Origin: an uncultured Methanosarcinales archaeon
Lineage (GTDB): Archaea > Nanobdellota > Nanobdellia > Woesearchaeales > ARS49
Length of the DNA: 64,000 bases
Assembly: GCA_964617195.1 (NCBI GenBank)
Contig: CAZTVK010000015.1
Location: forward strand, 2,317 to 66,316
Reading direction: 5' to 3'
Part shown: piece after piece, positions 3,076-46,566 of the stretch
How the letters are laid out: each line of letters begins with the position of its first letter
How positions within the stretch are numbered: the first letter of the stretch is position 1
Translations under genes and position numbers: made by a program
Notes under the pieces: generated by a model
The model's database searches: none
Seen by the model: only the letters and a program-made list of their open reading frames with translations
What the model was told of the DNA's origin: nothing

Positions 3076-5805
3076 TTACTCCGTCGTATTAATTATTTTT
3101 TTAACATCAATCTTTCCGCTCTCAGACCTGGCGACATCAATTCCATCTTCACCGTATTTGAACTGAATAATTCTGCCAGACGCGTCACGGACAGTTCCGT
3201 CATACTCAACACGCAAGTCCTGCATAGCGTTCGCCAAACGTCTGTACAAATAACCTGACTTAGGCGTACGCAAAGCAGTGTCCATCAAAGCATCCCTTCC
3301 AGTTATAGCGTGGAAGAAAAACTCCTTAGGATTAATGCCGTGCTTGAAACCGTGAATGATGAAACCGTGAGATTCAGGACTCAAGTCTCCGCGCTTGAAA
3401 CAACTCAAAGTCCTGTTACGATAACCCTTCTCGATACGCTTACCACGCATAGCTTGCTGGCCAACACAAGCGCTCATCTGAATCAAAGAAGTGATGCTAC
3501 CTCTAGCACCAGACAAAATCATTACAGCAGCATGGTTTTTGTCCTCGACAAAACCCTTGATGATCTGACCGCACGCGTTACGCGCCTTGTTCAAACGCTC
3601 CAAAATCTTAAGCTCAAGAGTCTCACTCGCAGTCCTGCCAGGATACACTTCAAGAGTGCCGCCTTGGAAAGACTTAATCATCTGAGAAACATCCTCTTCT
3701 GCCTGGTGAAGCAATTGGTCGATCTGGTCACGGGCTTCCTGAGGCAAGTCCTCGTCAGCAATACCAGTGCTGAATCCATGAATGAACAAGTACTCAATAC
3801 CCATTTTCAAAATGTGGTGCAAAATTTTGATAGTCTTCGCAGGCCCATACTGCTTGTGCAGGCTTCTCAAAAGAAGACCCTCGCCTTCTCCGCCGATCGC
3901 CTTGGTATCAATAATTCCCTCAATAAGCTGACCCTTCTTTATGATAACCGGCTCTCCAGAACGGGAAACGCCAACATAATCAAAATCATCAGGCAGCAAA
4001 GCACTGAACACTTCCCTGCCAGTCACTTTCTTCTTTGACGCGAGCCCTGCGAAACCAGACGCACCAATGCTCGCAAGCATCGAAGTCGCCTGCTCAGGAG
4101 TCAAATCTCCACGCTTCGTCAAAAGATAATTGCCACTGATCGCGTCCTGAATGCAACCAATGACTGAAAGACCATATCTTGGCGAAATCAGTTGCGTCTG
4201 AACCTGCATCAAAATCTCAGCTTCAGCCCTTGATTCCTCAGTCTGAGGAATATGCAAGTTCATCTCGTCACCGTCAAAGTCAGCGTTATAAGGGTTACAA
4301 ACAGCAGGGTTCAATCTCAAAGTCCTGCCAGGCAAAACTCTCACACGGTGGCACATCATGCTCATCCTGTGAAGCGAAGGCTGACGGTTGAAAATCGCAA
4401 TGTCGCCGTCAAGCAAATGACGCTCAACAACATAACCAGGCTGCAATTCTTCCAAAGCAGCTTCCTTAGTTTCCTCAGTAATCTTCTTCTTTTTGCCATC
4501 AGGCCTTACAACATAATTAGAACCAGGATAAACACCAGGACCATTCTGCACGAACTTCTTCAAATACACCATGTTCCAATCATTAACAGTCTCAGGAACA
4601 GTCAATTTCATAGCAATAATCTTCGGAACACCAACCTCATCCAATGCAAGCATCGGGTCAGGCGAGATAACAGTTCTAGCGCAGAAGTTCGTACGCTTAC
4701 CAGCAAGATTATGCCTGATACGACCTTCCTTACTCTTGATTCTCTCAGTGATCGTCTTCAAAGGCTGACCAGACCTGTGCCTTGCAGGCGGCAATTGCGC
4801 AATGCTGTTGTCAAAGAACGTGGTCACGTGATACTGCAACAAGTCCCACAAGTCCTCAATGATTATTTCAGGAGCACCAGCATTGATGTTCTCAAACAAT
4901 CTCTGGTTAATCCTGACAATATCGCCAAGCTTGTGCGTCAAATCATCCTCAGAACGCTCACCACTCTCGAGAGTGATGGACGGCCTGACAGTAACAGGAG
5001 GAATAGGCAAGACTGTCAAAATCATCCACTCAGGCCTTGCAGCCTTAGGATTCAAGCCGAATAACTCAGTGTCCTCATCAGGAATCTTCTCAAGGCGCGC
5101 GCGAATCTCTATCGGAGAAATACGCTTGTCACCCTCAAGGAAAGTAGTGGGTTTTTCAATCGAAATCTTTGCCTGTTTAGCCTTGCAATGCGGACACTTG
5201 CCGCCAGTCTTGGAACTGTCAATCAAAGCCTTGACTGCCAAACGTCGCGCTTCAGGACCTTCCTCGAACTCAATCTTGTCCAAATGCGCTTTAGCCTTAG
5301 CCAGCTTGTCCGGATGAACCATCAAACGAGAGCATTCCTTGCACGCTGTTCTCAACAACAACTGGATTATTCTGGCAAACTTAACGTGAATGACAGGTCT
5401 TGCAAGTTCAATATAACCAAAGTGACCGATGCATTCCTTCAATTTGCTACCGCAAGTCTTGCATCTCAAACCAGGATCGATGACTCCAAGACGGACATCC
5501 ATCAATCCGCCATCAACAGGATAACCTTCCTTATCATACAATTCAGGCGTCACAATCTTTGCGGACGCCATCTTCTTAATCATCTTAGGAGAAAGAACAC
5601 CGAACACAACGCTAGAAACTTGTTTGTAAACGTAATGAGCCATCCCTTCCATGCGCTCCCTTGAAAACTGCTCCCGCTCAATCTTCTCTTCCTTCGGAGC
5701 TTCAACTGGAGTTTCAACTGCTTTTTCAGCTACAATTTCTGCTTTCACTTCTTCAGCCGCAGGGGCTTCAGTTGTTACTGCTTCTTCCTTTTTCTTGCGT
5801 GGCAT
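3076..5805 (-). CDS. rpoA1: DNA-directed RNA polymerase subunit A'
   Basis: 909 aa with Rpb1 N-terminal motifs, including the zinc-binding CKTCG...C region and the NADFDGDEMN catalytic motif. Confidence 0.96.
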   Translation of the reverse strand: MPRKKKEEAVTTEAPAAEEVKAEIVAEKAVETPVEAPKEEKIEREQFSRERMEGMAHYVYKQVSSVVFGVLSPKMIKKMASAKIVTPELYDKEGYPVDGGLMDVRLGVIDPGLRCKTCGSKLKECIGHFGYIELARPVIHVKFARIIQLLLRTACKECSRLMVHPDKLAKAKAHLDKIEFEEGPEARRLAVKALIDSSKTGGKCPHCKAKQAKISIEKPTTFLEGDKRISPIEIRARLEKIPDEDTELFGLNPKAARPEWMILTVLPIPPVTVRPSITLESGERSEDDLTHKLGDIVRINQRLFENINAGAPEIIIEDLWDLLQYHVTTFFDNSIAQLPPARHRSGQPLKTITERIKSKEGRIRHNLAGKRTNFCARTVISPDPMLALDEVGVPKIIAMKLTVPETVNDWNMVYLKKFVQNGPGVYPGSNYVVRPDGKKKKITEETKEAALEELQPGYVVERHLLDGDIAIFNRQPSLHRMSMMCHRVRVLPGRTLRLNPAVCNPYNADFDGDEMNLHIPQTEESRAEAEILMQVQTQLISPRYGLSVIGCIQDAISGNYLLTKRGDLTPEQATSMLASIGASGFAGLASKKKVTGREVFSALLPDDFDYVGVSRSGEPVIIKKGQLIEGIIDTKAIGGEGEGLLLRSLHKQYGPAKTIKILHHILKMGIEYLFIHGFSTGIADEDLPQEARDQIDQLLHQAEEDVSQMIKSFQGGTLEVYPGRTASETLELKILERLNKARNACGQIIKGFVEDKNHAAVMILSGARGSITSLIQMSACVGQQAMRGKRIEKGYRNRTLSCFKRGDLSPESHGFIIHGFKHGINPKEFFFHAITGRDALMDTALRTPKSGYLYRRLANAMQDLRVEYDGTVRDASGRIIQFKYGEDGIDVARSESGKIDVKKIINTTE

Positions 5806-9717: not shown

Positions 9718-10140
9718 ATGAACAAAAACGTCCCGTACATCATTTTATTCACAATAATAGCATTAGCTGCACTTGCATTCATGTTCTACTCATCAAACCA
9801 ATACGGAAAAGCCAGCTACATAGGAACAATGATGTTCGAGGGCAGAATCGATGACAGCAATGGAAAACCAATATGGGCAGGCAGCATTGTGGGAGTTGCT
9901 GGCCAACGCCGAGTTGCAACAGGCAGAATCAAAGGCTCATACCGGCTTCACTTCCCAACAACATTTGAAAAAGGCATGGACTGGTATAAAGACAAGCCCT
10001 TATCCATATATGTAAACGGCAAACTTTGCACTACACTCGACCTATATAAGTTCGTACAAGAAAAAGGAGGAGGAGTCATAGCCCAAGCGAATCTCAACCT
10101 CAAATGCGGATTTGCATTAACTAAAGGAAGATACGCATAG
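9718..10140 (+). CDS. Hypothetical membrane-anchored protein (N-terminal TM helix)
   Basis: 140-aa ORF. Hydrophobic N-terminus IILFTIIALAALAFMF. No recognisable domain. Confidence 0.5.
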   Translation: MNKNVPYIILFTIIALAALAFMFYSSNQYGKASYIGTMMFEGRIDDSNGKPIWAGSIVGVAGQRRVATGRIKGSYRLHFPTTFEKGMDWYKDKPLSIYVNGKLCTTLDLYKFVQEKGGGVIAQANLNLKCGFALTKGRYA

Positions 10141-10188
10141 ATTTCTGAAAACGCCGAGATTGAGATTTTTGACTTCGTCCTGAAAAAA

Positions 10189-10261
10189 CGCCGGGACCGG
10201 GATTTGAACCCGGGTTGCAAGCGCGACAGGCTCGCGTGCTAGGCCACTACACTATCCCGGC
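10189..10261 (-). tRNA. tRNA-Asp(GUC)
   Basis: Hand-folded 73-nt cloverleaf. Acceptor GCCGGGA/TCCCGGC, anticodon loop CTGTCGC, T-arm CCGGG-TTCAAAT-CCCGG. TATA tttataaa lies ~30 bp upstream. Confidence 0.85.
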
Positions 10262-10313
10262 AATAGATTTAGGTTTGATACGGGCGATTTATAAATGTTA
10301 TGCGACTATAATA

Positions 10314-10814
10314 TTAAGAAATCCTGAACTGTTCTTCCAAATGCGCATACTCGCCCTCTGAGCCGTCCGGAGAATACCTTTTAGTCGTTTCCTTTCTTCT
10401 ATTCAACAAATAATCTTCAACAATCTCTACAGCCTTCTTCACGCCGCCCTTGAACGACACCTGCTTGTGCACGCCCAAAGTGATACTTGCAATGTAATCT
10501 TTTGGGGTGCAATCTTTACCAGAATACCTTAGCGTTAAAATCGCCTTTTTATTATTGTTAATATTAGTCATAACAACAACAATGCCATCCGGATGAGGTG
10601 TTTCTTCTGCAATACATTCCAAAGAATCCGACCTGTCCAGAACATTCACAAAAGACTCAATACTCATACTTGAACGATCATCTCCCCCAAAACGAGGCAT
10701 TACAACCTGCTTAGGTTTGATAAGCTGACCTCTCACGTACTGAGCTTCAGCTAATACTAATTCATACGTAGAACGGTCCAAATTAGGTAAATACGGCTTT
10801 GACTGCATCTTCAC
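10314..10814 (-). CDS. Hypothetical protein, probably co-transcribed with the RlmN-like radical SAM gene
   Basis: 166-aa ORF abutting the stop of the upstream radical SAM gene. No recognised motif. Confidence 0.5.
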   Translation of the reverse strand: MKMQSKPYLPNLDRSTYELVLAEAQYVRGQLIKPKQVVMPRFGGDDRSSMSIESFVNVLDRSDSLECIAEETPHPDGIVVVMTNINNNKKAILTLRYSGKDCTPKDYIASITLGVHKQVSFKGGVKKAVEIVEDYLLNRRKETTKRYSPDGSEGEYAHLEEQFRIS

Positions 10815-11666
10815 TCACTCAGAAATCTGTACAAGCTTCTCATTTAAATTCTTTTTGGTGCTAAGCATGCCACAAGCAGCATTCGACTCAATACCCTTAG
10901 TAGTCCTAATAATAGTCTTAAAACCAGCACTGATTAAAGCCTGCTTGAAAACTTCAGCAGACTCTTTTGACGGCCTTGCAAAAGTCGCGCCATCAACCGG
11001 ATTGTACATTATAAGATTAATAACGATATGTTTGAAACCTTTCAATAAAACAGCCAATTCTTCAGCATGCTCAATCTTATCATTCACGCCTGCTAATAAC
11101 ACATACTCAACCATCAACGGACCACGTTTCGTGAAAGGAAACTCCCTGCAAGCGTCAAGCACATCCTTAATCGGATAACGACTATTAATAGGAACAATCC
11201 TGCTTCTCAACTCATCATTCGGAGCATGCAACGACAATGCAAACTGACACTGAGTGTCTTTGCCCAATTGCATAATCTTATCCGGCAGTCCAACAGTAGA
11301 GACAGTGATTTTCTGCCAACTCATACCCTGCTTTCTGAACTCATTAACAGCACCAACAACATTATCATAATTGTGCAACGGCTCGCCCATGCCCATGAAC
11401 ACAATATTAGTGATTTTTTGTTCTGAAACAGACTGCATCAAAGATAACTGTCCAACAATTTCTTCTTTTGACAAATTTCTTGTGAAACCCATCATTCCAG
11501 TCGCGCAAAAAGAACACTTCATAGCGCAACCAACTTGCGACGATATGCACGCGCACAAAGTACGCTTGTGATGAATTAATACAGACTCCACTTTTTTGGC
11601 GTCATCTAATTCAATCAAGAATTTTCTTGTGCCGTCCGGAGATTTGATTTCTGAAGCGATACGCAT
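10815..11666 (-). CDS. Radical SAM enzyme of the RlmN/Cfr family (short form lacking an N-terminal extension)
   Basis: CAMKCSFCATG (Cx3Cx2C), GMGEP motif and conserved C-terminal Cys (ACGML), as in RlmN/Cfr. Confidence 0.75.
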   Translation of the reverse strand: MRIASEIKSPDGTRKFLIELDDAKKVESVLIHHKRTLCACISSQVGCAMKCSFCATGMMGFTRNLSKEEIVGQLSLMQSVSEQKITNIVFMGMGEPLHNYDNVVGAVNEFRKQGMSWQKITVSTVGLPDKIMQLGKDTQCQFALSLHAPNDELRSRIVPINSRYPIKDVLDACREFPFTKRGPLMVEYVLLAGVNDKIEHAEELAVLLKGFKHIVINLIMYNPVDGATFARPSKESAEVFKQALISAGFKTIIRTTKGIESNAACGMLSTKKNLNEKLVQISE

Positions 11667-11687
11667 GATATAGACGGCAGAACAGGA

Positions 11688-13100
11688 CTATATATTTTTT
11701 TGCAATTCACCGACGGCAACCGCATACCCAGCAGCATACGGACCCATCATCGCGGCCTGAGAAGAAACAGCCTCCAAAGTCTTCTGAGCCATTTTCACAT
11801 ATTTGCCTTCACGCGTAATATGCGCCAGCTGGAACAAAACCAAAGCCACAAAAGCATTATCATTCACAATCTTTTTACGTTCTTTCAACCTGCCAACAGA
11901 ATCCTTACTGGCAAGAACATCAAAAAAGCCTCCATTCTTCTTGTCATAAAACCTTTCCAACGCCTTCGCAACAGTCATCGCCTTGGCCTTCCACTCCAAT
12001 TTATCAGTCCTCTTGAAAGCCCAAAGCAAGCCCAACAACAAATAAGCATGATCCTTAAACAAAAACAACGGCTTCTCAGCAGGATAACAATGCGCTACAC
12101 AACCACGCATATTCGTTTTGTACAAAGAATCAAGGAGCTTAAATGCGACTTTATCATACTCAGGATCAAGAATGGCGGCTTCTGACAACGCCATAATCAT
12201 CGCAGCATTACAATCAGTAAAAATTCTCCTATCAACCGCAGGAGCTTCATGACGCATCCGCTCGGACAACGGCAGATTGCAATAAGCCTCATCAGCATCC
12301 TGGCTCGCAAAGAAAACGCCTTTCTCATGGTCATACATCATCGAAAACAGCCAGAACAAAATCTTATTTGAAGCCGTCAAGTACTCTTCCTTCTTGAACA
12401 CCCTGTGAGCAAACAAATAATATGCTAACAATCTGGAATTATCCTCCAGCATTTTCTCAAAATGAGGAATAGTCCAGTTCTGCAAAGTAGCATACCTATA
12501 GAAACCACCGCTCACATGATCGAAAATCTCGCCCTTCAACATCTTTGAAAGCGTGAAATCAAGCATCTTGGCAGCATCCTTGTCCTTCAACTTCATAATA
12601 CGCCAGACAAGATAACCAAGAATCTCATGATGAGGGAATTTAGGCTCCAAACCAAAACCGCCATTAATTGGGTCGTAGAACGACTTAATCATCTTCCAGA
12701 AATACTCATGATCAAAAGGCAGCTTCAACGGCTTTTCCTTCCCTGCTTTCTTCGGCTTATACTTCTTGAAACGACCAATCGCGTCCTCCAAAAATTTAAT
12801 CATATGCTCAGGAGAAACATAAGTAGCAGCAGAGACTATTTCTCCATCGTGCGCTAGAACAGCAGTGGTAGGCCAGCCGCCAACATTATACCTGTCATTA
12901 ATATCAGGACGCTCGTCAGTATCAACCCTTATCGGAATGAAATTTTTGTTGATGAACTCAATAATTTCTTTATTAGAATACGTCAAACGGTCCATCGTAT
13001 GACACCAATGACACCATACTGCAGAAATTCCGAGCAAGACTGGCTTCTTCTCCTTCTTAGCCTTCAGAAATGCTTCTTTACCCCAGTCAAACCAGTTCAT
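11688..13100 (-). CDS. Thioredoxin-domain protein of the DUF255/YyaL family
   Basis: N-terminal thioredoxin-like motif WCHWCH followed by a helical six-hairpin-like domain. Confidence 0.7.
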   Translation of the reverse strand: MNWFDWGKEAFLKAKKEKKPVLLGISAVWCHWCHTMDRLTYSNKEIIEFINKNFIPIRVDTDERPDINDRYNVGGWPTTAVLAHDGEIVSAATYVSPEHMIKFLEDAIGRFKKYKPKKAGKEKPLKLPFDHEYFWKMIKSFYDPINGGFGLEPKFPHHEILGYLVWRIMKLKDKDAAKMLDFTLSKMLKGEIFDHVSGGFYRYATLQNWTIPHFEKMLEDNSRLLAYYLFAHRVFKKEEYLTASNKILFWLFSMMYDHEKGVFFASQDADEAYCNLPLSERMRHEAPAVDRRIFTDCNAAMIMALSEAAILDPEYDKVAFKLLDSLYKTNMRGCVAHCYPAEKPLFLFKDHAYLLLGLLWAFKRTDKLEWKAKAMTVAKALERFYDKKNGGFFDVLASKDSVGRLKERKKIVNDNAFVALVLFQLAHITREGKYVKMAQKTLEAVSSQAAMMGPYAAGYAVAVGELQKNI

Positions 13101-15679: not shown

Positions 15680-16354
15680 TCATTCCCACTTATCCAAGAA
15701 AATGTGCTCTTTCAGCTGGCCAAGATCGATTAACTTCTCCTCAACATTCTCCACCAGTGCTGGCGGACCGCAGATGTAAACTTGATAACCTTTCTTGAAA
15801 TACTTCTGCAAGAAATTCTGCACTCTTCCACGCTCACCATCCCACTGAGGAAAACCATCAACAGTAATCGTCGGAACAAGCTTGAACTTGCCTTTCAAGC
15901 TTTCAAACTCTTTTCTATAGATAAAGTCAGAAGGAGTTTTCATGCTGTAGATTAGAAGAACTTCCTTTCCTTCAGCCAAAGCCTGATGAATCATCGGCCT
16001 GAACGGAGCTATGCCAGTTCCACCTGCAATGAAAAGATATTTTTGCGCAGGCCTCAGCCAAAACATTCCATAAGGGCCATCAATATGCACAACACTACCA
16101 GGCTTCAAGTCCTGCAAGTGAGCGCTCAAACCCTGACCACGAGCAACACACAGTTCAACATAATCTTCGCCAGACATTGAAGCAATCGAGAAAGCCCTTC
16201 TCAAAGGCTTGTTGTTCTCGCCAATAAAATCATCACACCATACACCAGCCCACTGGCCGGGGCGGAAAGCGATTTTTTGCGGCAATGACAATCTCACAAG
16301 ACGAACTTTCGGAGTCTCCTGAACAACCTCTTTTACCGTCGCATCGACTTTCAT
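15680..16354 (-). CDS. FAD/NAD(P)-binding oxidoreductase (ferredoxin-NADP reductase-like, PyrK-type)
   Basis: RAFSIAS FAD motif and GGTGIAP NAD(P) motif. Start reassigned to the internal Met (MKVDATVKEV), which has a TATA ~25 bp upstream. Confidence 0.75.
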   Translation of the reverse strand: MKVDATVKEVVQETPKVRLVRLSLPQKIAFRPGQWAGVWCDDFIGENNKPLRRAFSIASMSGEDYVELCVARGQGLSAHLQDLKPGSVVHIDGPYGMFWLRPAQKYLFIAGGTGIAPFRPMIHQALAEGKEVLLIYSMKTPSDFIYRKEFESLKGKFKLVPTITVDGFPQWDGERGRVQNFLQKYFKKGYQVYICGPPALVENVEEKLIDLGQLKEHIFLDKWE

Positions 16355-16390
16355 AATATTTATTAACGCAGAACAGCATATAAAAGGTTT

Positions 16391-16756
16391 ATGATGAAAA
16401 AAACGCTTATCATTCTGCTCATACTCGCCAGCTGCGCTCCTGCCCAAAACGGATTTCTCGAAGGAAGCGCTGACATCGGACCAATCTGTCCAGTCGAAAG
16501 ACCAGACCAGCCCTGCAAAGTCCCGCCAGAAGCGTACGAAGCACGCAAAATAATGGTTTACAACGGCAAAAAACTAGTCAAACAAATAGACATTGACAAC
16601 ACAGGGCACTATAAAACAGAACTAAAACCAGGAACGTACACAATCGACATCAACCGAGCAGGCATGGATTTCAGCAAAGAACTGCCAGCAAGCATCACAA
16701 TAGAACCGGACAAAACAACAACACTCGACATCAGCATAGACACAGGAATAAGATGA
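16391..16756 (+). CDS. Small secreted lipoprotein-like protein
   Basis: Signal peptide with lipobox LILASC. Overlaps the msrA start. Confidence 0.55.
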   Translation: MMKKTLIILLILASCAPAQNGFLEGSADIGPICPVERPDQPCKVPPEAYEARKIMVYNGKKLVKQIDIDNTGHYKTELKPGTYTIDINRAGMDFSKELPASITIEPDKTTTLDISIDTGIR

Positions 16757-39837: not shown

Positions 39838-40218
39838 ATGGTCATAGTACACAGAGCAAGAACGAACAGAAAGCCAACAGGCGGCATGTACAACATAGCC
39901 CGAGATAAACGAAAATACGAAATGGGAAGGTTGCCAACCATGACAAAAATCGGCACACAAAAAATCAAGGCTGTAACGACAAAAGCAAACACGAAAAAAA
40001 TGAAAGTCCTCGTAGCACAATTCGCAAACGTTCTTGATCCAAAAACAAAAAAGTTCGTAAAAGCGACCATCAAAACAGTTGATGAATGCCCGGCAAACAG
40101 GCACTTCGTCAGACGAAACATAGTAGTCAAGGGCGCAGTAATAATGACAGACGCAGGAAAAGCAAAAGTAACATCTCGTCCTGGACAAGATGGAACTGTC
40201 AACGCAGTGCTTATTTAG
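39838..40218 (+). CDS. rps8e: 30S ribosomal protein S8e (eS8)
   Basis: RKPTGG...RKYE...AKVTSRPGQDGTVNAVL matches archaeal S8e. Confidence 0.9.
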   Translation: MVIVHRARTNRKPTGGMYNIARDKRKYEMGRLPTMTKIGTQKIKAVTTKANTKKMKVLVAQFANVLDPKTKKFVKATIKTVDECPANRHFVRRNIVVKGAVIMTDAGKAKVTSRPGQDGTVNAVLI

Positions 40219-40266
40219 TTCTGATTTTTGTTAAAATTTATATACTGAAACATATAGATTCTAGAT

Positions 40267-41304
40267 ATGGGGGCAACAATTAACGAATGCGTAGACCGCA
40301 TAATCTCGCACAAAGGACCAGTTCTGCCAGGGCGCGTGACCCTGACCGTTTTGGAATATGTTCTAGTTAATCTTGAAGTAAAAATCTGTGACGATGCTGA
40401 GCTTGCCTACTTGAAAAAATTAAGACCTTACGATTTCAAAGGCACAGACAACCTATGGAACATCGACAACGGCAAGAATTACCCACTTGCACGAGAACTT
40501 TCCCACCATGTTGCCCAGAAACTAATGGAAAAAAACCATTGGAACGTCATGCAACTTGTGCAGAACGTAACTCAAAAACAATTCAATGAAACACCAATCA
40601 ACCAATGGGGCACAACTGCCAGCGGCATGGCTGAAAAAGTCTATGGCAGCCATTCAGAAGCAATCATCGACCTCACACAGAACGACAATAGATATGCAGA
40701 ATGGAATGATGCCAAATGGTACGACTTCAAGAAAGTTCACCTAACTGACGAAAGATCACGAGAGCTTACCCACATCCTTTTGCAGAAAATAATGAAAGAC
40801 AACAACTGGGACTTCGTGCAATTAGTAAAGAACATGCGCGACCCTCCTGAGAACTGCGGCTACACTGGATGGAAGCATGCGTTCCAGAAACCAATAGACC
40901 GATACGGCGCGTCGCTTGTTGGCGTAATCGACCGGCATCGTGATTGTCCGGCTGAAGTGGTTTTAGATCTTGTAATGAATGATAAACGTTACAGGGAATT
41001 CCGCGATTTGAGCAAACCCGACTTCCCAGACCAGCGCAATATCTGGAACCTGAAGAACGGGAAGAAAAACTACGAACTCGCCCGCAAAACAACAGAAATG
41101 CTGATGAAAAAGCTCGACGTGCAGGATTACGCATTGAAAGAGATTCTAGAATGTGTAACCGACAGAGTTTTTCGCAACACCGAAATAAACCGTTACGGAA
41201 CAAAGCTAGAAGGCATGGTTAAGAGGACGTATGGGTGCAGAGTTCGCAGAGCAATCGAGGATTGGTACAATGCAGACAGGACCGCATCCATGAACTTAAG
41301 TTAG
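40267..41304 (+). CDS. Hypothetical protein composed of three ~95-aa internal repeats
   Basis: Repeats share WN..NGKNY.LAR......KLM.K..W...QLV.N.....F..T.IN..GT...GM..K.YG. No recognisable family. Confidence 0.5.
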   Translation: MGATINECVDRIISHKGPVLPGRVTLTVLEYVLVNLEVKICDDAELAYLKKLRPYDFKGTDNLWNIDNGKNYPLARELSHHVAQKLMEKNHWNVMQLVQNVTQKQFNETPINQWGTTASGMAEKVYGSHSEAIIDLTQNDNRYAEWNDAKWYDFKKVHLTDERSRELTHILLQKIMKDNNWDFVQLVKNMRDPPENCGYTGWKHAFQKPIDRYGASLVGVIDRHRDCPAEVVLDLVMNDKRYREFRDLSKPDFPDQRNIWNLKNGKKNYELARKTTEMLMKKLDVQDYALKEILECVTDRVFRNTEINRYGTKLEGMVKRTYGCRVRRAIEDWYNADRTASMNLS

Positions 41305-41466
41305 AAGAATTGTTTTCCTCTGTTAATTCTTTTTTAGACGAAATTTCAAAAATGTTTCACTGAAAAGTAGGTCAAACATAGTGAAAAAATATTTCTGAGA
41401 ATATATGTTAAAGAGTGATAATGTTTATATATGAATTCAATATGTAGTAACTTGCTCCGACGATGA

Positions 41467-41482
41467 CCACAAGAGCTTGTGG
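41467..41482. promoter_or_regulatory. Inverted repeat CCACAAG-ag-CTTGTGG upstream of nrdR (candidate NrdR box)
   Basis: 16-bp 7-2-7 palindrome with CAC...GTG ends, ~50 bp upstream of the nrdR start. Confidence 0.35.
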
Positions 41483-41529
41483 TTTTTACAACTTGCGAGT
41501 GAAATTGAACTAAAAAATCAGGTGATTGT

Positions 41530-42006
41530 GTGAAGTGCCCGTTTTGCCAAAATACTGACAACAAAGTCCTTGACAGCAGATTAACAACTGATTCTGACAG
41601 CATTCGAAGAAGAAGAGAATGCGAACAATGCTCAAAAAGATTCACAACATACGAGCGAGTAGAAATGTTTGATATTTCTGTAGTAAAACGCGACGGAAGA
41701 AGAGAGCCGTTCTCAAGAGAAAAAGTCCTGAAAGGAATCATAAGAGCCTGCGAAAAACGACCAGTCAAAAGAGAACAAATGGACGCAGTAATCGGAATCG
41801 TAGAAGCAGCACTAAGACAATCAGACAAAGACGAAATCAAAAGCAACAAAATAGGAGAACTAGTCATGCAAGAACTAGCCAAGCTCGATGATGTCGCGTA
41901 CGTACGCTTTGCAAGCGTGTACAAAAAGTTCAAAGACGCAAACCAATTCGTTGACGCGATCAAAACACTCAAGAAACAGGAACGATTAATGGAGGCAGAA
42001 CCATGA
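41530..42006 (+). CDS. nrdR: Transcriptional repressor NrdR (Zn ribbon + ATP-cone)
   Basis: MKCPFCQ...CEQC zinc ribbon followed by an ATP-cone. Stop overlaps the RNR start (ATGA). Confidence 0.88.
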   Translation: MKCPFCQNTDNKVLDSRLTTDSDSIRRRRECEQCSKRFTTYERVEMFDISVVKRDGRREPFSREKVLKGIIRACEKRPVKREQMDAVIGIVEAALRQSDKDEIKSNKIGELVMQELAKLDDVAYVRFASVYKKFKDANQFVDAIKTLKKQERLMEAEP

Positions 42007-44561
42007 CGACAATAAAAACCACGCCAGAACTCAAACAAGAATGGGACAAAGCACCATTCGGCGACATACCACTAACTGAAAACCAAAGAAAAGTCATCAA
42101 AGACAAATACTTACGAGACGACCCAAGCGTTGAAACCTGGCTCTGGGGCATCGCCAAAAACATCGCGCTCTCAGAACTCCTCTACCACCCAGAAATACCA
42201 AGAGACCAAGCATTCGCAGGAACAAGATACAGCCAAGAATGGGTAGACGTAGGAAATGGAGAGACTAGCGAACTATTACTTCTACACATAGGAGCCAAAA
42301 ACTACGGCGACCAAGAACAAAACCACAGAAAATTCATACAAAACCTGTACAAACTACTCGACAACAGCCCAAGAGCAAGAGAAATCTGCCTCAAAACCGC
42401 AGCACAATACTACGACATACTGGCAAACTTTGATTTTCTGCCAAACTCGCCAACGCTAATGAATGCTGGAAGAGAATTACAACAATTATCAGCATGCTAC
42501 GTCCTCCCAATAGACGACAGCATAGAAGCATGGGGAGACTTAGTCAAGCAAACAATGCTCATCCACAAATCAGGAGGAGGAACGGGCTTCTCAGGCTGCA
42601 GAGTCAGACCAAAAGGAGACAGAGTCAAAAGCACAAAAGGAGTAGCATCAGGAGCACTATCCCCATTCAGCATAATTAATTACGCAACGCAAGAAGTCAA
42701 ACAAGGAGGAACGAGAAGAGGAGCAAACATGGGCATCCTGCCATACTGGCACCCAGACGTCTTCGACTTCATCAAACACAAAGCAGAAGACGGCAAACTC
42801 GAAAATTTTAACGTCTCTGTCGCAGTAGACAAAAAGTTCATGGAAGCAGTCAAAAAAGGAGAAGACTACGACTTATTGAATCCAAGAACAAAAGAACCAG
42901 TCGGCAAAGCAAACGCCAAAGAAGTCTTCAACATGATATGCGACTTTGCATGGAAAACAGGAGACCCAGGAATGATCTGGCTGGACAGAATCAACAACAG
43001 CCACTCAAACCCAACACCAAAACTAGGAGAAGTCGAAAGCACCAACCCTTGCGGCGAACAACCATTGCTCCCATACGAGCCATGCAACCTTGGAAGCATC
43101 AACCTGAGCAAGTTCGCAGTAATGGGCAAAATAGATTACGCAAGACTAGGAGAAGTAACCAAGCTAGCCACACGATTCCTAGACAACGTCATTGACGTGA
43201 ACAACTACCCGATTCCAGAAATAGAAAAAATCGCGAAAGGAAACAGAAGAATCGGCCTAGGCGTCATGGGCTGGGCAGAAATGCTCGCGCTATTAAACAT
43301 TCCATACGACAGCAACGAAGCGCTCGCAAAAGCAGAAGAACTAATGAGCTTCATCAACGCAAAAGCGCTGGAAGCAAGCGAAGAACTCGCAATAGAACGC
43401 GGAGTCTTCCCAAACTTCAAAGACAGCATCTTCGACTCAAGCGGGCCATTCTACAGAGACTGGGCAAAAGGAAGACCAAGAAACTGCGCAAGAACAACAA
43501 TCGCGCCAACAGGAACAATAGCGATCTGCGCAGGACTGCAAGGAGGAGGAATCGAACCATTCTTCGGCATAGCCTATACAAGATACAACGCAAAAGCGCT
43601 AGACGCGCTTAAAGCAGGCGCGGAGCCAAACGAAGGAGACGTCTTCCACGAAGTCAACCCGATATTCATGACCGTAGCCAAGAACAACAACTACTTCGGA
43701 CTGGAACCAGAAGAACTGTGGAAAAAAATAGAAGCAAACCACAACTCGGCCAGAGGCGTGAAAGAAATACCAGAGAGCATACAAAGATCATTCGGCTCAG
43801 CGCACGACGTGCAAGTAGAATACCACGTCCAACAACAAGCAGCATTCCAAAAATACACGGACAACGGAGTGTCAAAAACTATTAATTTGCCAAACAGCGC
43901 AACAGTCGAAGACATCAAGAAAACATACATGATGGCACACGAACTCGGCTGCAAAGGAATCACTGTCTACCGCGACGGGTGCAAGAGCCAGCAAGTCCTC
44001 AACATCAGCAAAAAAGAAGTCAAGGAAGTTGCAAAAGAAATGCCGAAAATGGATCCTTCCGAAGGCATCAACTCTGTATACTACCAGTTCGAAACAGGGT
44101 ACGGACCAGTGCACGTGCACATCGACCACCACAACGGCCAGATTTTGAAAGTATTCACGAACATTGCGCCGATAGGAACAGAAATCGCAGGATTGACATC
44201 AGTGATGGGAATACTGATCAGCAAGTATTTGTCGCTAGGCGGAGAAATAAACACGCTCAGAAAGCACCTGAACAGCATCAAAAGCGACAAGCCATACGGA
44301 TTCGGACCAAAAAGAGTAGAAAGCATCCCACACGCCGTGTCAACCGCTTTGAGCAAATTCCTAGCACAAATGGGAAACCTGCCAGGACAACAATTACTGA
44401 CACCAATGGTAGCAACTGCTGAAATCAAAACACAGGCAAAACCAGACCTGCAAGAACACAAGCCAGGACACTGCCCAAAATGCTACAGCCCAAACATTGC
44501 TTACTTAAGCGGCTGTGCTGGACCAACCTGCTACGAGTGCGGATTCAGCGAGTGCAGCTAA
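42003..44561 (+). CDS. nrdJ: Adenosylcobalamin-dependent (class II) ribonucleotide reductase
   Basis: 852 aa. TNPCGEQPL active-site motif, SACYV, C-terminal Cys cluster CPKC...CYEC. Confidence 0.88.
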   Translation: MTTIKTTPELKQEWDKAPFGDIPLTENQRKVIKDKYLRDDPSVETWLWGIAKNIALSELLYHPEIPRDQAFAGTRYSQEWVDVGNGETSELLLLHIGAKNYGDQEQNHRKFIQNLYKLLDNSPRAREICLKTAAQYYDILANFDFLPNSPTLMNAGRELQQLSACYVLPIDDSIEAWGDLVKQTMLIHKSGGGTGFSGCRVRPKGDRVKSTKGVASGALSPFSIINYATQEVKQGGTRRGANMGILPYWHPDVFDFIKHKAEDGKLENFNVSVAVDKKFMEAVKKGEDYDLLNPRTKEPVGKANAKEVFNMICDFAWKTGDPGMIWLDRINNSHSNPTPKLGEVESTNPCGEQPLLPYEPCNLGSINLSKFAVMGKIDYARLGEVTKLATRFLDNVIDVNNYPIPEIEKIAKGNRRIGLGVMGWAEMLALLNIPYDSNEALAKAEELMSFINAKALEASEELAIERGVFPNFKDSIFDSSGPFYRDWAKGRPRNCARTTIAPTGTIAICAGLQGGGIEPFFGIAYTRYNAKALDALKAGAEPNEGDVFHEVNPIFMTVAKNNNYFGLEPEELWKKIEANHNSARGVKEIPESIQRSFGSAHDVQVEYHVQQQAAFQKYTDNGVSKTINLPNSATVEDIKKTYMMAHELGCKGITVYRDGCKSQQVLNISKKEVKEVAKEMPKMDPSEGINSVYYQFETGYGPVHVHIDHHNGQILKVFTNIAPIGTEIAGLTSVMGILISKYLSLGGEINTLRKHLNSIKSDKPYGFGPKRVESIPHAVSTALSKFLAQMGNLPGQQLLTPMVATAEIKTQAKPDLQEHKPGHCPKCYSPNIAYLSGCAGPTCYECGFSECS

Positions 44562-44577
44562 TTTTTTCTTTTATTAA

Positions 44578-44637
44578 TTAGAAATCTTCGTCATCGCCGC
44601 CAACATCGTCAGCGTCATCATCACCAATATCATCCAT
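44578..44637 (-). CDS. Putative 19-aa acidic micro-ORF (MDDIGDDDADDVGGDDEDF) with a perfect SD
   Basis: GGAGGTG 7 nt upstream of ATG on the minus strand. Shares a palindromic TATA region (atttaaat, ~44680) with the divergent adenosyltransferase gene. Confidence 0.25.
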   Translation of the reverse strand: MDDIGDDDADDVGGDDEDF

Positions 44638-44708
44638 ATGCAGACACCTCCATTTTTTTATCCCTAAAACCCACATAGTATTTAAATTTAGCCAACACAC
44701 TCACACCC

Positions 44709-45230
44709 ATGTCAATCGTAACAAAAGGAGGAGACAAAGGACAGACTTCTTTACTTGGCGGGCAAAGAGTTCCGAAAAATGACGCACGAATAGAAGCATA
44801 CGGAGACGTAGATGAATTGAACGCGGCAATCGGCATCGCACTGACTTACGCCAAAGACAAGAACGTGAAAAAAATCTTACACCAAGTTCTAAACGACTTG
44901 TTCAGAATCGGAGCAGAACTGGCAGCACTCGGAACTAAATTCACTAATTTTCCGAAAATAACTGAAACGCACACAATCGCAATAGAAAAAGAAGTCTACC
45001 GCGTTGAGAACAAATTACCAAAACAAAAAACGTTCATCCTGCCAGCAGGAAACGAAAGCTCAACACATTTGCACTTGGCACGCGCAATCTGCAGAAGAGC
45101 AGAAAGAAAAGTCGTCGCACTGACCGGAGTAAACCAGGAGCTTATCAGATATCTCAACAGGCTAAGCGATTTACTCTTTATTTACGCAAGACTAGAGAAT
45201 AAAAAAGACGAACCGGTGAAGTATGATTGA
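44709..45230 (+). CDS. PduO-type ATP:cob(I)alamin adenosyltransferase
   Basis: N-terminal TKGGDKGQTS motif and overall PduO/MMAB-like sequence. Leaderless (TATA ~25 bp upstream). Confidence 0.85.
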   Translation: MSIVTKGGDKGQTSLLGGQRVPKNDARIEAYGDVDELNAAIGIALTYAKDKNVKKILHQVLNDLFRIGAELAALGTKFTNFPKITETHTIAIEKEVYRVENKLPKQKTFILPAGNESSTHLHLARAICRRAERKVVALTGVNQELIRYLNRLSDLLFIYARLENKKDEPVKYD

Positions 45231-45378
45231 ACAAACATTTCTAGACAGAGAATTCGCAAGAAAACTTGTAACTACAGAATATGACCCGTGCAACATCTGC
45301 GGAATGCCAATGCTCGCCAATAAGTGCAAGATCACTTGCTTGAACTGCGGGTTCAAAAGAGATTGTAGTGACTCGTAG
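45223..45378 (+). CDS. Small C4 zinc-ribbon protein translationally coupled to the adenosyltransferase
   Basis: 51 aa, not in the ORF track. CNIC...CLNC. ATG overlaps the upstream stop by 8 nt. Confidence 0.5.
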   Translation: MIEQTFLDREFARKLVTTEYDPCNICGMPMLANKCKITCLNCGFKRDCSDS

Positions 45379-45454
45379 CTAAATCTTTAAATAGGTCATT
45401 GTAATTGTATTCTCGGGGGGAATGTCAAGAACCATCAAAAAACAATAATGAATA

Positions 45455-46174
45455 GTGATGGTTCTTGAGCATGCTCGGAAACTCCGCCTAAAAGATGTTT
45501 CCGAGCGGAGTTTCCGACACATGGAACAAACAGCTAAAGAGGTAGTGCTCACGTATGAAACATTGTACGAGCTTCTGCGAAGAGAAAAATCACGCGAAGA
45601 GCTGCAAAAGCTAGACGAAAGATTCTTCAAAGACACGCTGAATTATTTACGCGAAAAACAGCAATCATACGATGACAATCTCACAAAAAACGACATCTTC
45701 TCGCAAAGCGAAAGAGACAAACTGCACATACAACTCGCAAACATCAAGAAAATACTGAAAGACTTGTACGACATAAGAGAACGCAAGATAATCAACATGG
45801 CGATCAACAAGAGCAGAACAAACTCACACATAGTAGACACGCAAAATCTTCTTCAACAAGAACAATCAATGTTTGAAAGCCTGCACTCAGTGCTATCACA
45901 GTACAGAACAGGAATACTGCACAGACTCATCGAATTAAGAGAGCCAGACATAATGCCAATCGTTTTACCATTGCCGAACGAACAGCCGCAAGAAGAGATA
46001 CCGGCACCATTGCCGCACGGAATGAGGAAAATCAAGTGTTTAGAAGCAGTCGACCAATTCTTCGGAGAAGAATTAGAACAATACGGACCTTTCAAACAAG
46101 ACGAAGAAGTCACGATTCCAGGCCAGCTGGCAGATATTTTGATTTCTCAAGGGAAAGCAGCCGAGACACAGTAA
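45455..46174 (+). CDS. Hypothetical coiled-coil protein
   Basis: 239-aa ORF. Charged, helical. No family recognised. Confidence 0.45.
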   Translation: MMVLEHARKLRLKDVSERSFRHMEQTAKEVVLTYETLYELLRREKSREELQKLDERFFKDTLNYLREKQQSYDDNLTKNDIFSQSERDKLHIQLANIKKILKDLYDIRERKIINMAINKSRTNSHIVDTQNLLQQEQSMFESLHSVLSQYRTGILHRLIELREPDIMPIVLPLPNEQPQEEIPAPLPHGMRKIKCLEAVDQFFGEELEQYGPFKQDEEVTIPGQLADILISQGKAAETQ

Positions 46175-46218
46175 CCGCGCCAAAGCAAAGCCTTGGAATG
46201 CACGAGCATTCCAAAACC

Positions 46219-46232
46219 TTTTTAAACCCCCC
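46219..46232 (+). promoter_or_regulatory. TATA (tttttaaa) plus C-run, ~25 bp upstream of the rpl44e start
   Basis: tttttaaacccccc, then ATG at 46249. Confidence 0.4.
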
Positions 46233-46248
46233 ATATACCCAACGACGT

Positions 46249-46566
46249 ATGAAGCTTCCGAAAACAAGAAAGACGTACTGCCCGAAGTGCAAAAAGCACA
46301 CAGAACACAAAGTAATAGAGGGCAAGAAAAAAGGCAGAAACGCCACGCACCCAATGAGTTTCGGAAGCCAGAAAAGAATCAGACACCGAGGCCATCTAGG
46401 CATAGGAAACCACGGAAAATATTCACGACCTCCAATCACAAAATGGAGAATGACAGGAAGAAAAACCAGCAAAAAAGTTGATTTACGCTTCGAATGCCCA
46501 GTCTGCAAGAAAATGCACGGCATGAGCGCAGGCGGATTCAGGACAAGAAAGGTGGAGTTCAAATGA
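46249..46566 (+). CDS. rpl44e: 50S ribosomal protein L44e (eL42)
   Basis: MKLPKTRKTYCPKCKKHTEHKV...ECPVCKK zinc ribbon. Start reassigned to the internal Met of the 176-aa ORF. Confidence 0.88.
   Translation: MKLPKTRKTYCPKCKKHTEHKVIEGKKKGRNATHPMSFGSQKRIRHRGHLGIGNHGKYSRPPITKWRMTGRKTSKKVDLRFECPVCKKMHGMSAGGFRTRKVEFK

Follow-up and report, generated by a model that had tools for sequence, protein, structure and literature searches.

A predicted NrdR-autoregulated class II ribonucleotide reductase operon, with a linked PduO-type adenosyltransferase gene, in a Woesearchaeota-type archaeon

Can a bacterial-type, nucleotide-sensing repressor govern the supply of deoxyribonucleoside triphosphates (dNTPs) from an archaeal promoter, and does an archaeon that carries such a system hold it by inheritance or by recent acquisition? 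These questions are raised by a four-gene locus in a stretch of 64,000 nucleotides (nt) from contig CAZTVK010000015.1 (positions 2,317 to 66,316; this whole stretch is called the window). The locus encodes the repressor NrdR, the ribonucleotide reductase (RNR) NrdJ, the adenosyltransferase PduO and a small cysteine-rich protein, termed Zn51:

41530-42006, plus strand: nrdR, with a GTG start, identified by profile matches
42003-44561, plus strand: nrdJ, whose ATG overlaps the nrdR TGA, identified by profile matches
44709-45230, plus strand: pduO, matching PF01923 and TIGR00636
45223-45378, plus strand: Zn51, a cysteine-rich open reading frame (ORF) of 51 amino acids (aa), overlapping the pduO stop by 8 nt

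An initial annotation, made from the letters of the sequence, had read these genes as a self-contained and possibly transferred cassette. We consider it highly probable that they form a chromosomal, vertically inherited dNTP-supply locus, in which NrdR autoregulates an nrdRJ operon and PduO makes the cofactor of NrdJ. The sequences show the identities of the genes, the box pair, the conservation of these elements and the synteny of the region; the transcription start, the nucleotide switch, repression by steric block, a separate pduO transcript and B12 salvage are inferred.

NrdR (158 aa) matched the whole TIGR00244 model (positions 1-147/147) with 205 bits, against a cut-off of 124.65. Its zinc ribbon covered PF22811 (Zn_ribbon_NrdR) from end to end (75.5 bits, 1-42/42), with C3, C6, C31 and C34 in two CxxC motifs, and its ATP cone was full length (PF03477, 91 bits, 2-87/88). 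The zinc ribbon plus ATP cone that had been proposed for this protein are thus borne out, and the cone, whose residues might have proved to be missing, is intact. NrdR aligned without gaps with the solved NrdRs 9FXK and 7P37 (Escherichia coli-type and Streptomyces coelicolor). According to the cryo-electron microscopy structure of NrdR, the residues that read DNA are D15, R17 and an RRRR motif (PMC9110341). D15, R17 and R26-R29 are all present here, and they are conserved in 97-98 of the 98 NrdRs of the archaeal clade. Within this set R17, R27-R29, C31 and C34 never vary, and C3, C6, D15 and R26 are almost invariant: the C31 and C34 pair was found in 98/98 sequences, and C3 and C6 in all 95 that lack an N-terminal truncation. 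The hallmark positions of the ATP cone (K53, F61, K65, Y124, R126 and F127) are likewise conserved in the archaeal clade. The GTG start of nrdR is preceded, 4 nt ahead, by a Shine-Dalgarno-like AGGTGA (41520-41525, plus strand), and the alignment showed GGTGA before nrdR in three related loci as well (L001, L004 and L081; loci compared with the window are numbered in this way). A 230-aa ORF antisense to nrdR (41346-42038, minus strand) was taken as a by-product of the purine-skewed coding strand and discarded. Long spurious antisense ORFs from purine skew also occur in L081, where a public gene call (4442-4912, minus strand) lies on the wrong strand over the S8e gene.

The initial annotation had held NrdR to be uncommon in Archaea, and some recent papers still call it rare or absent there. 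This view is outdated: 77% of bacterial genomes are reported to carry NrdR, and among archaeal genomes the share is 22% (PMC13584703). The exact NrdR of the window had no entry in the contig collection. In a large protein collection ∼100 of the best matches to our NrdR (57-92% identity) came, where the source was named, from metagenome-assembled genomes (MAGs) of Candidatus Woesearchaeota or Nanoarchaeia, and NCBI already annotates these homologues as NrdR. We conclude that NrdR is pervasive in Woesearchaeota.

The start of nrdJ and the stop of nrdR share an ATGA at 42003-42006, as had been noticed before. NrdJ (852 aa) scored 628 bits on TIGR02504 (NrdJ_Z; cut-off 400), and 295 bits, under the cut-off of 341, on the class I model TIGR02506. 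Among solved structures it is closest to Thermotoga maritima NrdJ (1XJE, 337 bits), the other solved RNR chains reaching at most 190 bits. The ten-stranded barrel was matched in full (PF02867, 397 bits, 1-523/523), the thiyl-radical cysteine loop NPCGE lies at aa 348-352 (nt 43044-43058), and a TSCPD-like region is present. The enzyme is therefore the adenosylcobalamin-dependent reductase that had been proposed from its NPCGE motif, and it groups with class II, not with class I or class III. Searches of the cluster and of 38 window ORFs revealed no gene resembling nrdB, nrdD or nrdG, and a Pfam scan of NrdJ revealed no ATP cone of its own. The C-terminus carries an array of six cysteines (C824, C827, C838, C843, C846 and C851) conserved in 117 homologues. 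About 70% of NrdJ enzymes have such a six-cysteine domain, and the physiological reductant of the tail-bearing enzymes is not known (PMC5704485). Farther off in the window, ∼26-30 kb upstream, are genes for a 470-aa thioredoxin-fold protein (DUF255/Thioredox_DsbH; 11688-13100, minus strand) and for an FAD/NAD(P)-binding oxidoreductase (15680-16447, minus strand); that these are reductants for NrdJ or cobalamin is conceivable. In a more distant Woesearchaeal locus (L083:7001-11784), two distinct genes for RNR catalytic proteins, of 750 and 673 aa, lie downstream of nrdR (62% identity); the second encodes its own ATP cone, and pduO is not nearby.

NrdR boxes are partial palindromes of 16 bp in which six positions (C4, A6, A8, T9, T11 and G13) are highly conserved, and they occur in pairs 15-16 bp apart (PMC13584703). 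The spacer ahead of nrdR contains such a pair, directly behind a TATA box:

41424-41431, plus strand: TATA box TTTATATA of the nrdR-nrdJ promoter, ending 3 bp before box 1
41435-41450, no strand assigned: predicted NrdR box 1, ATTCAATATGTAGTAA, with 6/6 core positions
41451-41466, no strand assigned: linker of 16 bp between the boxes, holding the predicted transcription start and a conserved CCGACGA
41467-41482, no strand assigned: predicted NrdR box 2, CCACAAGAGCTTGTGG, with 5/6 core positions, followed by five T residues (T5)

Both strands of the window were scanned for pairs with at least 11/12 core positions and a linker of 15-16 bp. A single pair passed, and its position is the 225-bp spacer ahead of nrdR; the region 41340-41530, in which the initial annotation had proposed a search for NrdR-box-like palindromes, thus holds a canonical pair. 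First-order Markov simulations gave 0.66 strand-hits per window, i.e., ∼0.33 sites when each palindromic site is counted once, and 27% of the simulated windows had one hit or more. A hit anywhere in the window is therefore unremarkable by itself, and a hit in the 225-bp spacer is expected in about one in a thousand windows. We regard the recurrence of the predicted boxes among relatives as the decisive evidence. In 11/11 archaeal loci with enough upstream DNA, among them L013 with only 54% NrdR identity, a box pair precedes nrdR by 85-100 bp, or by 150 bp in L002, where there is an insertion. The linker measures 16 bp in 10 of these 11 loci and 17 bp in L083, and the core of box 2 is 6/6 in most relatives. 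In an alignment of 9 loci the TATA box and both boxes appeared as conserved columns, with AATGTTTAWATA invariant at the TATA box, and the CCGACGA of the linker was conserved as far as L081 and L082.

In archaea the distance from the TATA box to the transcription start is usually ∼26 nt. From the TATA box at 41424-41431, a start at ∼41454, inside the linker, is predicted; box 1 would then cover approximately positions -19 to -4 and box 2 approximately +13 to +28. Archaeal repressors that bind downstream of the TATA box typically block the recruitment of RNA polymerase. With these elements, nrdR and nrdJ would make up a translationally coupled and autoregulated operon on an archaeal promoter. 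By analogy with bacterial NrdR, the repressor loaded with ATP alone would be oligomeric and off the DNA, and upon a rise in dATP an ATP/dATP-loaded tetramer would occupy both boxes, kink the DNA and cover the start site. RNA polymerase would then not be recruited behind TBP/TFB, and the synthesis of both NrdR and the reductase would drop. Because NrdJ has no ATP cone of its own, the overall feedback from dATP/ATP would come from NrdR and act on transcription. NrdJ would use adenosylcobalamin, made by the adjoining PduO from salvaged cobalamin.

Upstream of the TATA box, conservation extends into a further element:

41353-41412, plus strand: conserved non-coding block of ∼60 bp, GTTTCACT..AAGTGG..CATAGTGAAAAAnTATT..GCAGAATATATGTT

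The block was conserved in the 9 aligned loci, including L081 and L082 (66-76% NrdR identity). It was considered as a site of additional NrdR boxes, and rejected for want of a fit to the C4/G13 pattern; as a repeated regulatory motif it was also rejected, its core 12-mer CATAGTGAAAAA occurring once in the window. The block had no Rfam match. It could be the site of a second regulator or a second promoter, and together with the conserved linker it suggests that further regulators act here.

The third gene encodes a protein of 173 aa that consists of the N-terminal domain only (PF01923, 189.8 bits; TIGR00636, 172 bits, cut-off 108). It matched 37 solved PduO-type chains (best E = 9e-33), among them Lactobacillus reuteri PduO and the archaeal TA0546, ST1454 and PH0671. 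Hence the gene downstream of the RNR encodes a PduO-type cob(I)alamin adenosyltransferase, as had been supposed. Three elements lie in the spacer between nrdJ and pduO:

44562-44572, plus strand: T-rich tract TTTTTTCTTTT, directly after the nrdJ stop
44578-44637, minus strand: hyper-acidic micro-ORF of 19 aa, MDDIGDDDADDVGGDDEDF, preceded by GGAGGTG
44678-44688, no strand assigned: TATA-like near-palindrome GTATTTAAATT, lying 21-31 nt before the pduO ATG

Termination at oligo-T tracts is established for archaea, and the tract at 44562-44572 is likely to be the terminator of nrdRJ. The TATA-like element, of which AAGTATTTAAATTTA is also found in the nrdJ-pduO spacers of L003 and L004, is likely to be the promoter of a leaderless pduO-Zn51 transcript, and possibly serves the divergent micro-ORF as well. 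Given the oligo-T tract after nrdJ and the TATA-like element before pduO, these last two genes probably form a separate leaderless transcription unit in this genome. In L005 and L007, where nrdJ and pduO are nearly contiguous or directly abutting, the two genes are probably co-transcribed. The self-contained cassette of the initial annotation holds in part: the regulator, the B12-dependent reductase and the enzyme for its cofactor do adjoin, but pduO and Zn51 are probably a separate unit without boxes. The Pfam scan of the 38 window ORFs revealed no genes for vitamin B12 transport or biosynthesis, and the interval 40200-46300 contained no cobalamin riboswitch or other Rfam family at E values up to 1.

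The fourth gene had been proposed as a 51-aa ORF with a C4 zinc ribbon overlapping the pduO stop. The gene and its 8-nt overlap are real, but six cysteines, not four, are invariant. Orthologues were found in 7 other loci (L002-L005, L008, L081 and L082), and gene callers often miss them, as in L082. Across the 8 loci, differences fell at third codon positions 408 times, versus 106 and 76 at the other two, and 378 codon differences were synonymous versus 73 non-synonymous. Zn51 is a real gene under purifying selection; its translation is coupled to that of pduO in this lineage. Exhaustive searching without a profile turned up 128 small proteins with a common C-terminal motif, CxxCG-x7-CK-x2-C-x2-CG-x2-RDCSD(P), and in an alignment of 19 sequences C23, C26, C35, K36, C39, C42, G43, R46, D47, C48, S49 and D50 were invariant. 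A profile built from the homologues scored Zn51 at 63.7 bits (E = 1e-17). Since homologues carry a precomputed match to PF28087:HVO_2523, we provisionally assign Zn51 by sequence to the HVO_2523 family of zinc-finger microproteins. On the NCBIfam model of the family, NF041914, it reached 18.6 bits (E = 0.0013) against a cut-off of 60, and its relatives are below the cut-off too. Like the members of this family (PF28087, NF041914; named for a protein of Haloferax volcanii), Zn51 is small, with six invariant cysteines and a C-terminus of the form CxxCG...CK..C..CG..RDCSD; unlike them, it ends in SDS (RDCSDS) instead of SDP and is coupled to pduO. Deletion of HVO_2523 in Haloferax gave pleiotropic phenotypes and no assigned function (PMC6562870). 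Bacterial genes of the family adjoin those for an anti-sigma factor and a flavin mononucleotide (FMN) reductase, or for a hexapeptide-repeat protein, and in the bacterial contexts examined there were no RNR or B12 genes. An AlphaFold2 model of Zn51 had a mean pLDDT of 69, and a Foldseek search of the PDB with it returned generic zinc ribbons only, at E > 0.6.

The micro-ORF at 44578-44637 is convergent with nrdJ and divergent from pduO. Among the window's ATG-started ORFs of 10-46 aa it is the only one whose D/E content reaches 50%, and the same holds in each of L001-L004, where it has the same place (L001:6146-6205, L002:8412-8474, L003:3240-3296 and L004:10034-10090). The peptides of 18-20 aa always end in Phe and are preceded by a GGAGGT ribosome-binding site; indels between them are in-frame, and the acidity is kept. 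The peptide may resemble the acidic, Phe-terminated docking tails seen at the tip of bacterial SSB, in T7 gp2.5 and at the C-termini of class I RNR beta subunits. The corresponding spacer in L008 (10053-10572) holds other small minus-strand ORFs, one of which encodes a 35-aa zinc ribbon.

The locus lies among archaeal genes. A Pfam scan of the window ORFs placed S8e upstream, and GINS51, L44e, S27e and eIF2-alpha downstream, with the split RNA polymerase genes A'/A''/B'/B'' farther off. L001-L008 (78-95% NrdR identity) share the order S8e-[variable slot]-nrdR-nrdJ-pduO-Zn51-GINS-S27e, and so, with insertions, does L082 (66% NrdR identity); L081 retains nrdR-nrdJ-NUDIX-pduO. The spacer between S8e and nrdR varies in relatives from ∼225 bp (L005 and L008) to ∼3 kb (L002). 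In the window this slot contains an ORF of 345 aa with internal repeats of ∼100 aa (40267-41304), which had no match in Pfam or NCBIfam and no homologue in the S8e-nrdR spacers of the relatives. Downstream, L081 has a NUDIX hydrolase gene between nrdJ and pduO and an adenylosuccinate synthetase gene between pduO and Zn51 (10070-10456 and 11049-12062), and in L082 genes for S-adenosylmethionine decarboxylase and spermidine synthase follow Zn51 (11004-12139). The nrdJ-pduO-Zn51 neighborhood thus tolerates lineage-specific insertions. In our reading the organism is a Woesearchaeota-type DPANN archaeon. The title 'uncultured Methanosarcinales' of L001-L005 and L008 is apparently a taxonomic error of the MAG submissions concerned, because near-identical proteins and neighboring relatives are labeled Woesearchaeota or Nanoarchaeota.

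Was the module, then, inherited or recently acquired? A recently acquired, mobile and self-contained bacterial cassette would fit the nearest relatives outside the lineage, which are bacterial both for NrdR (Omnitrophota, Planctomycetes, Deltaproteobacteria and Firmicutes, 52-62% identity) and for NrdJ (Planctomycetes, 66%; Elusimicrobia, 57-59%), and the variable slot of 0.2-3 kb directly upstream of nrdR could be read in the same way. Yet relatives with as little as 66% NrdR identity still have the cluster in the same slot, flanked by core informational genes; its GC content (45.1%) is close to that of the window (43.4%), and neither an integrase nor a tRNA flank was seen. In a neighbor-joining tree, rooted arbitrarily and without support values, the archaeal-labeled NrdRs formed one clade nested among bacterial sequences, and the bacterial nrdR loci closest in sequence lack an adjoining nrdJ. 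No donor operon was identified among L009-L080: the nrdR-nrdJ linkage is absent in nearly all of them, and two Saccharibacteria loci have a distant RNR downstream. The recent transfer that had been suggested is contradicted by the synteny, the GC content and the single archaeal clade, and we judge it extremely improbable. With the slot conserved and the GC content normal, the cluster would be an inherited one; an ancient bacterial origin followed by vertical inheritance is plausible and fits these data. A different objection concerns the palindromes, which might be RNA or terminator elements, or sites of another factor, if the archaeal NrdR were no longer a repressor of RNR genes. Box 2 with its T5 (CCACAAGAGCTTGTGGTTTTT) indeed resembles a short hairpin followed by a U-tract, and the linker and the upstream block are conserved to a degree for which NrdR has no need. 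Nevertheless, box 1 lacks hairpin potential and still matches the NrdR core at 6/6 positions, the start-to-start spacing of 32 bp is the canonical value, and the palindromes had no Rfam match. In box 2 the stem halves are invariant and never covary while the central 4 nt vary, which is the pattern of a DNA site, and the NrdR residues that read DNA show little or no variation across the 98 archaeal-clade sequences. This explanation of the palindromes is very unlikely.

Two other proposals start from Zn51. It could be a stand-alone copy of the six-cysteine tail of NrdJ and serve as an electron shuttle for NrdJ itself or for PduO-bound cob(II)alamin; the four parts of the locus would then form one functional unit. 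The six cysteines of Zn51 are in register with those of the NrdJ tail (hhalign local P = 0.0017), the span from the first to the sixth is 25 residues both in Zn51 and in the tail of Stackebrandtia nassauensis NrdJ, and members of the HVO_2523 family weakly matched (E ∼0.02) the final 30 positions of PRK06556, an NrdJ model. Moreover, 6 genomes share the overlap between Zn51 and the stop of pduO, and the lack of a known physiological reductant for tail-bearing NrdJ enzymes (PMC5704485) leaves room for such a shuttle. The hhalign probability for Zn51 versus the tail was only 15%, however, and hmmsearch with the family profile against 19,670 ORF fragments, which included NrdJ tails, found no tail at E values up to 5, other zinc ribbons outscoring them. 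Bacterial members of the family stand in unrelated contexts, L007 has no Zn51 at this position and L081 has it displaced, the fold search pointed to generic ribbons, and the Haloferax deletion phenotypes have no obvious link to dNTPs; we hold the shuttle to be quite unlikely. A broader proposal is that Zn51 and the acidic peptide are both accessory factors of a tail-bearing class II RNR, the one a shuttle for its six-cysteine tail and the other a peptide that binds RNR or the replisome, and that the linker and the upstream block serve a second, archaeal-type regulator. We consider this combination unlikely.

The reading of the locus as an inherited, NrdR-autoregulated dNTP-supply locus has several points to contend with. 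Both the predicted transcription start and the proposed nucleotide-dependent switch are carried over from bacteria. The conserved CCGACGA linker and the ∼60-bp upstream block exceed the needs of the bacterial NrdR model, and the perfect 6+6 palindrome of box 2, with T5 behind it, could also act as an RNA hairpin in the 5′ leader. The pduO-Zn51 pair has no NrdR boxes of its own here and is possibly outside NrdR control; no gene for a cobalamin transporter or reductase was found in the window; and the taxon labels of the closest MAGs conflict, L001-L005 and L008 being labeled 'Methanosarcinales' and P0004, L007 and L013 Woesearchaeota or Nanoarchaeota. All of these weigh against our interpretation.

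How does the locus compare with known systems? The closest parallel in gene order is the nrdRJ operon of S. coelicolor, which is autoregulated through two 16-bp boxes with a linker of 15-16 bp. As in that operon, the boxes overlap the start-site region (predicted in our case), and the repressor is a protein of zinc ribbon and ATP cone in which D15, R17 and RRRR are conserved. Here, however, the host is an archaeon, and the boxes lie behind the TATA box of a TBP/TFB promoter rather than over -10 and -35 elements; a conserved linker and an upstream block are present, and pduO and the gene for a zinc microprotein follow. A bacterial-type NrdR directly upstream of an RNR in an archaeal host is also seen in the nrdR-nrdAB cassettes of haloarchaea, in Halogeometricum pHBOR02 and Natronomonas PL131 (PMC3019208). 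Those cassettes differ from our locus in that they encode class I RNRs, reside on plasmids or secondary replicons and represent documented transfers (PMC3019208). On pHBOR02 of Halogeometricum borinquense (L087:3924-3969) we found a box pair, ACACGATATATTGCGG and CCACAACATGTGGAAT, with 6/6 and 6/6 core positions and a 14-bp linker, 77 bp upstream of nrdR and just downstream of the TATA-like CTTTATCA. This plasmid thus supplies a second, independent archaeal case of predicted boxes behind a TATA-like element. The haloarchaeal NrdR is 47.6% identical to ours, and many bacterial NrdRs are closer; since it is the more distant, we take it to be a separate acquisition. The link between a B12-dependent RNR and a PduO-type adenosyltransferase has its counterpart in Lactobacillus delbrueckii, a B12 auxotroph with an nrdJ-cbrS-cbrT-pduO cluster (PMC5997447). 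In contrast to that cluster, ours is accompanied by no energy-coupling factor (ECF) or Btu transporter genes, either in the cluster or in the window; conversely, the L. delbrueckii cluster has no NrdR inside.

Operons of nrdR and nrdJ, the linkage of nrdJ with pduO, and archaeal NrdRs are thus already known, and the locus adds a DPANN example. Our literature search found no paper that links NrdR with DPANN archaea, and there appears to be no experimental study of NrdR on an archaeal TBP/TFB promoter. The locus provides a clean and conserved example of this bacterial-type nucleotide-sensing repressor on such a promoter, and the box pair immediately behind the TATA box makes it a directly testable model of NrdR repression in archaeal transcription. 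The practical gain is modest: the annotation of a small, often uncalled gene is improved, and archaeal promoters are added to the validated-looking NrdR sites. For the organism itself, the locus shows how a genome-reduced DPANN archaeon may supply its dNTPs, with one class II RNR, feedback through NrdR and a single PduO, and the reliance on salvaged B12 that it implies would point to a dependence on cobalamin supplied by the community.

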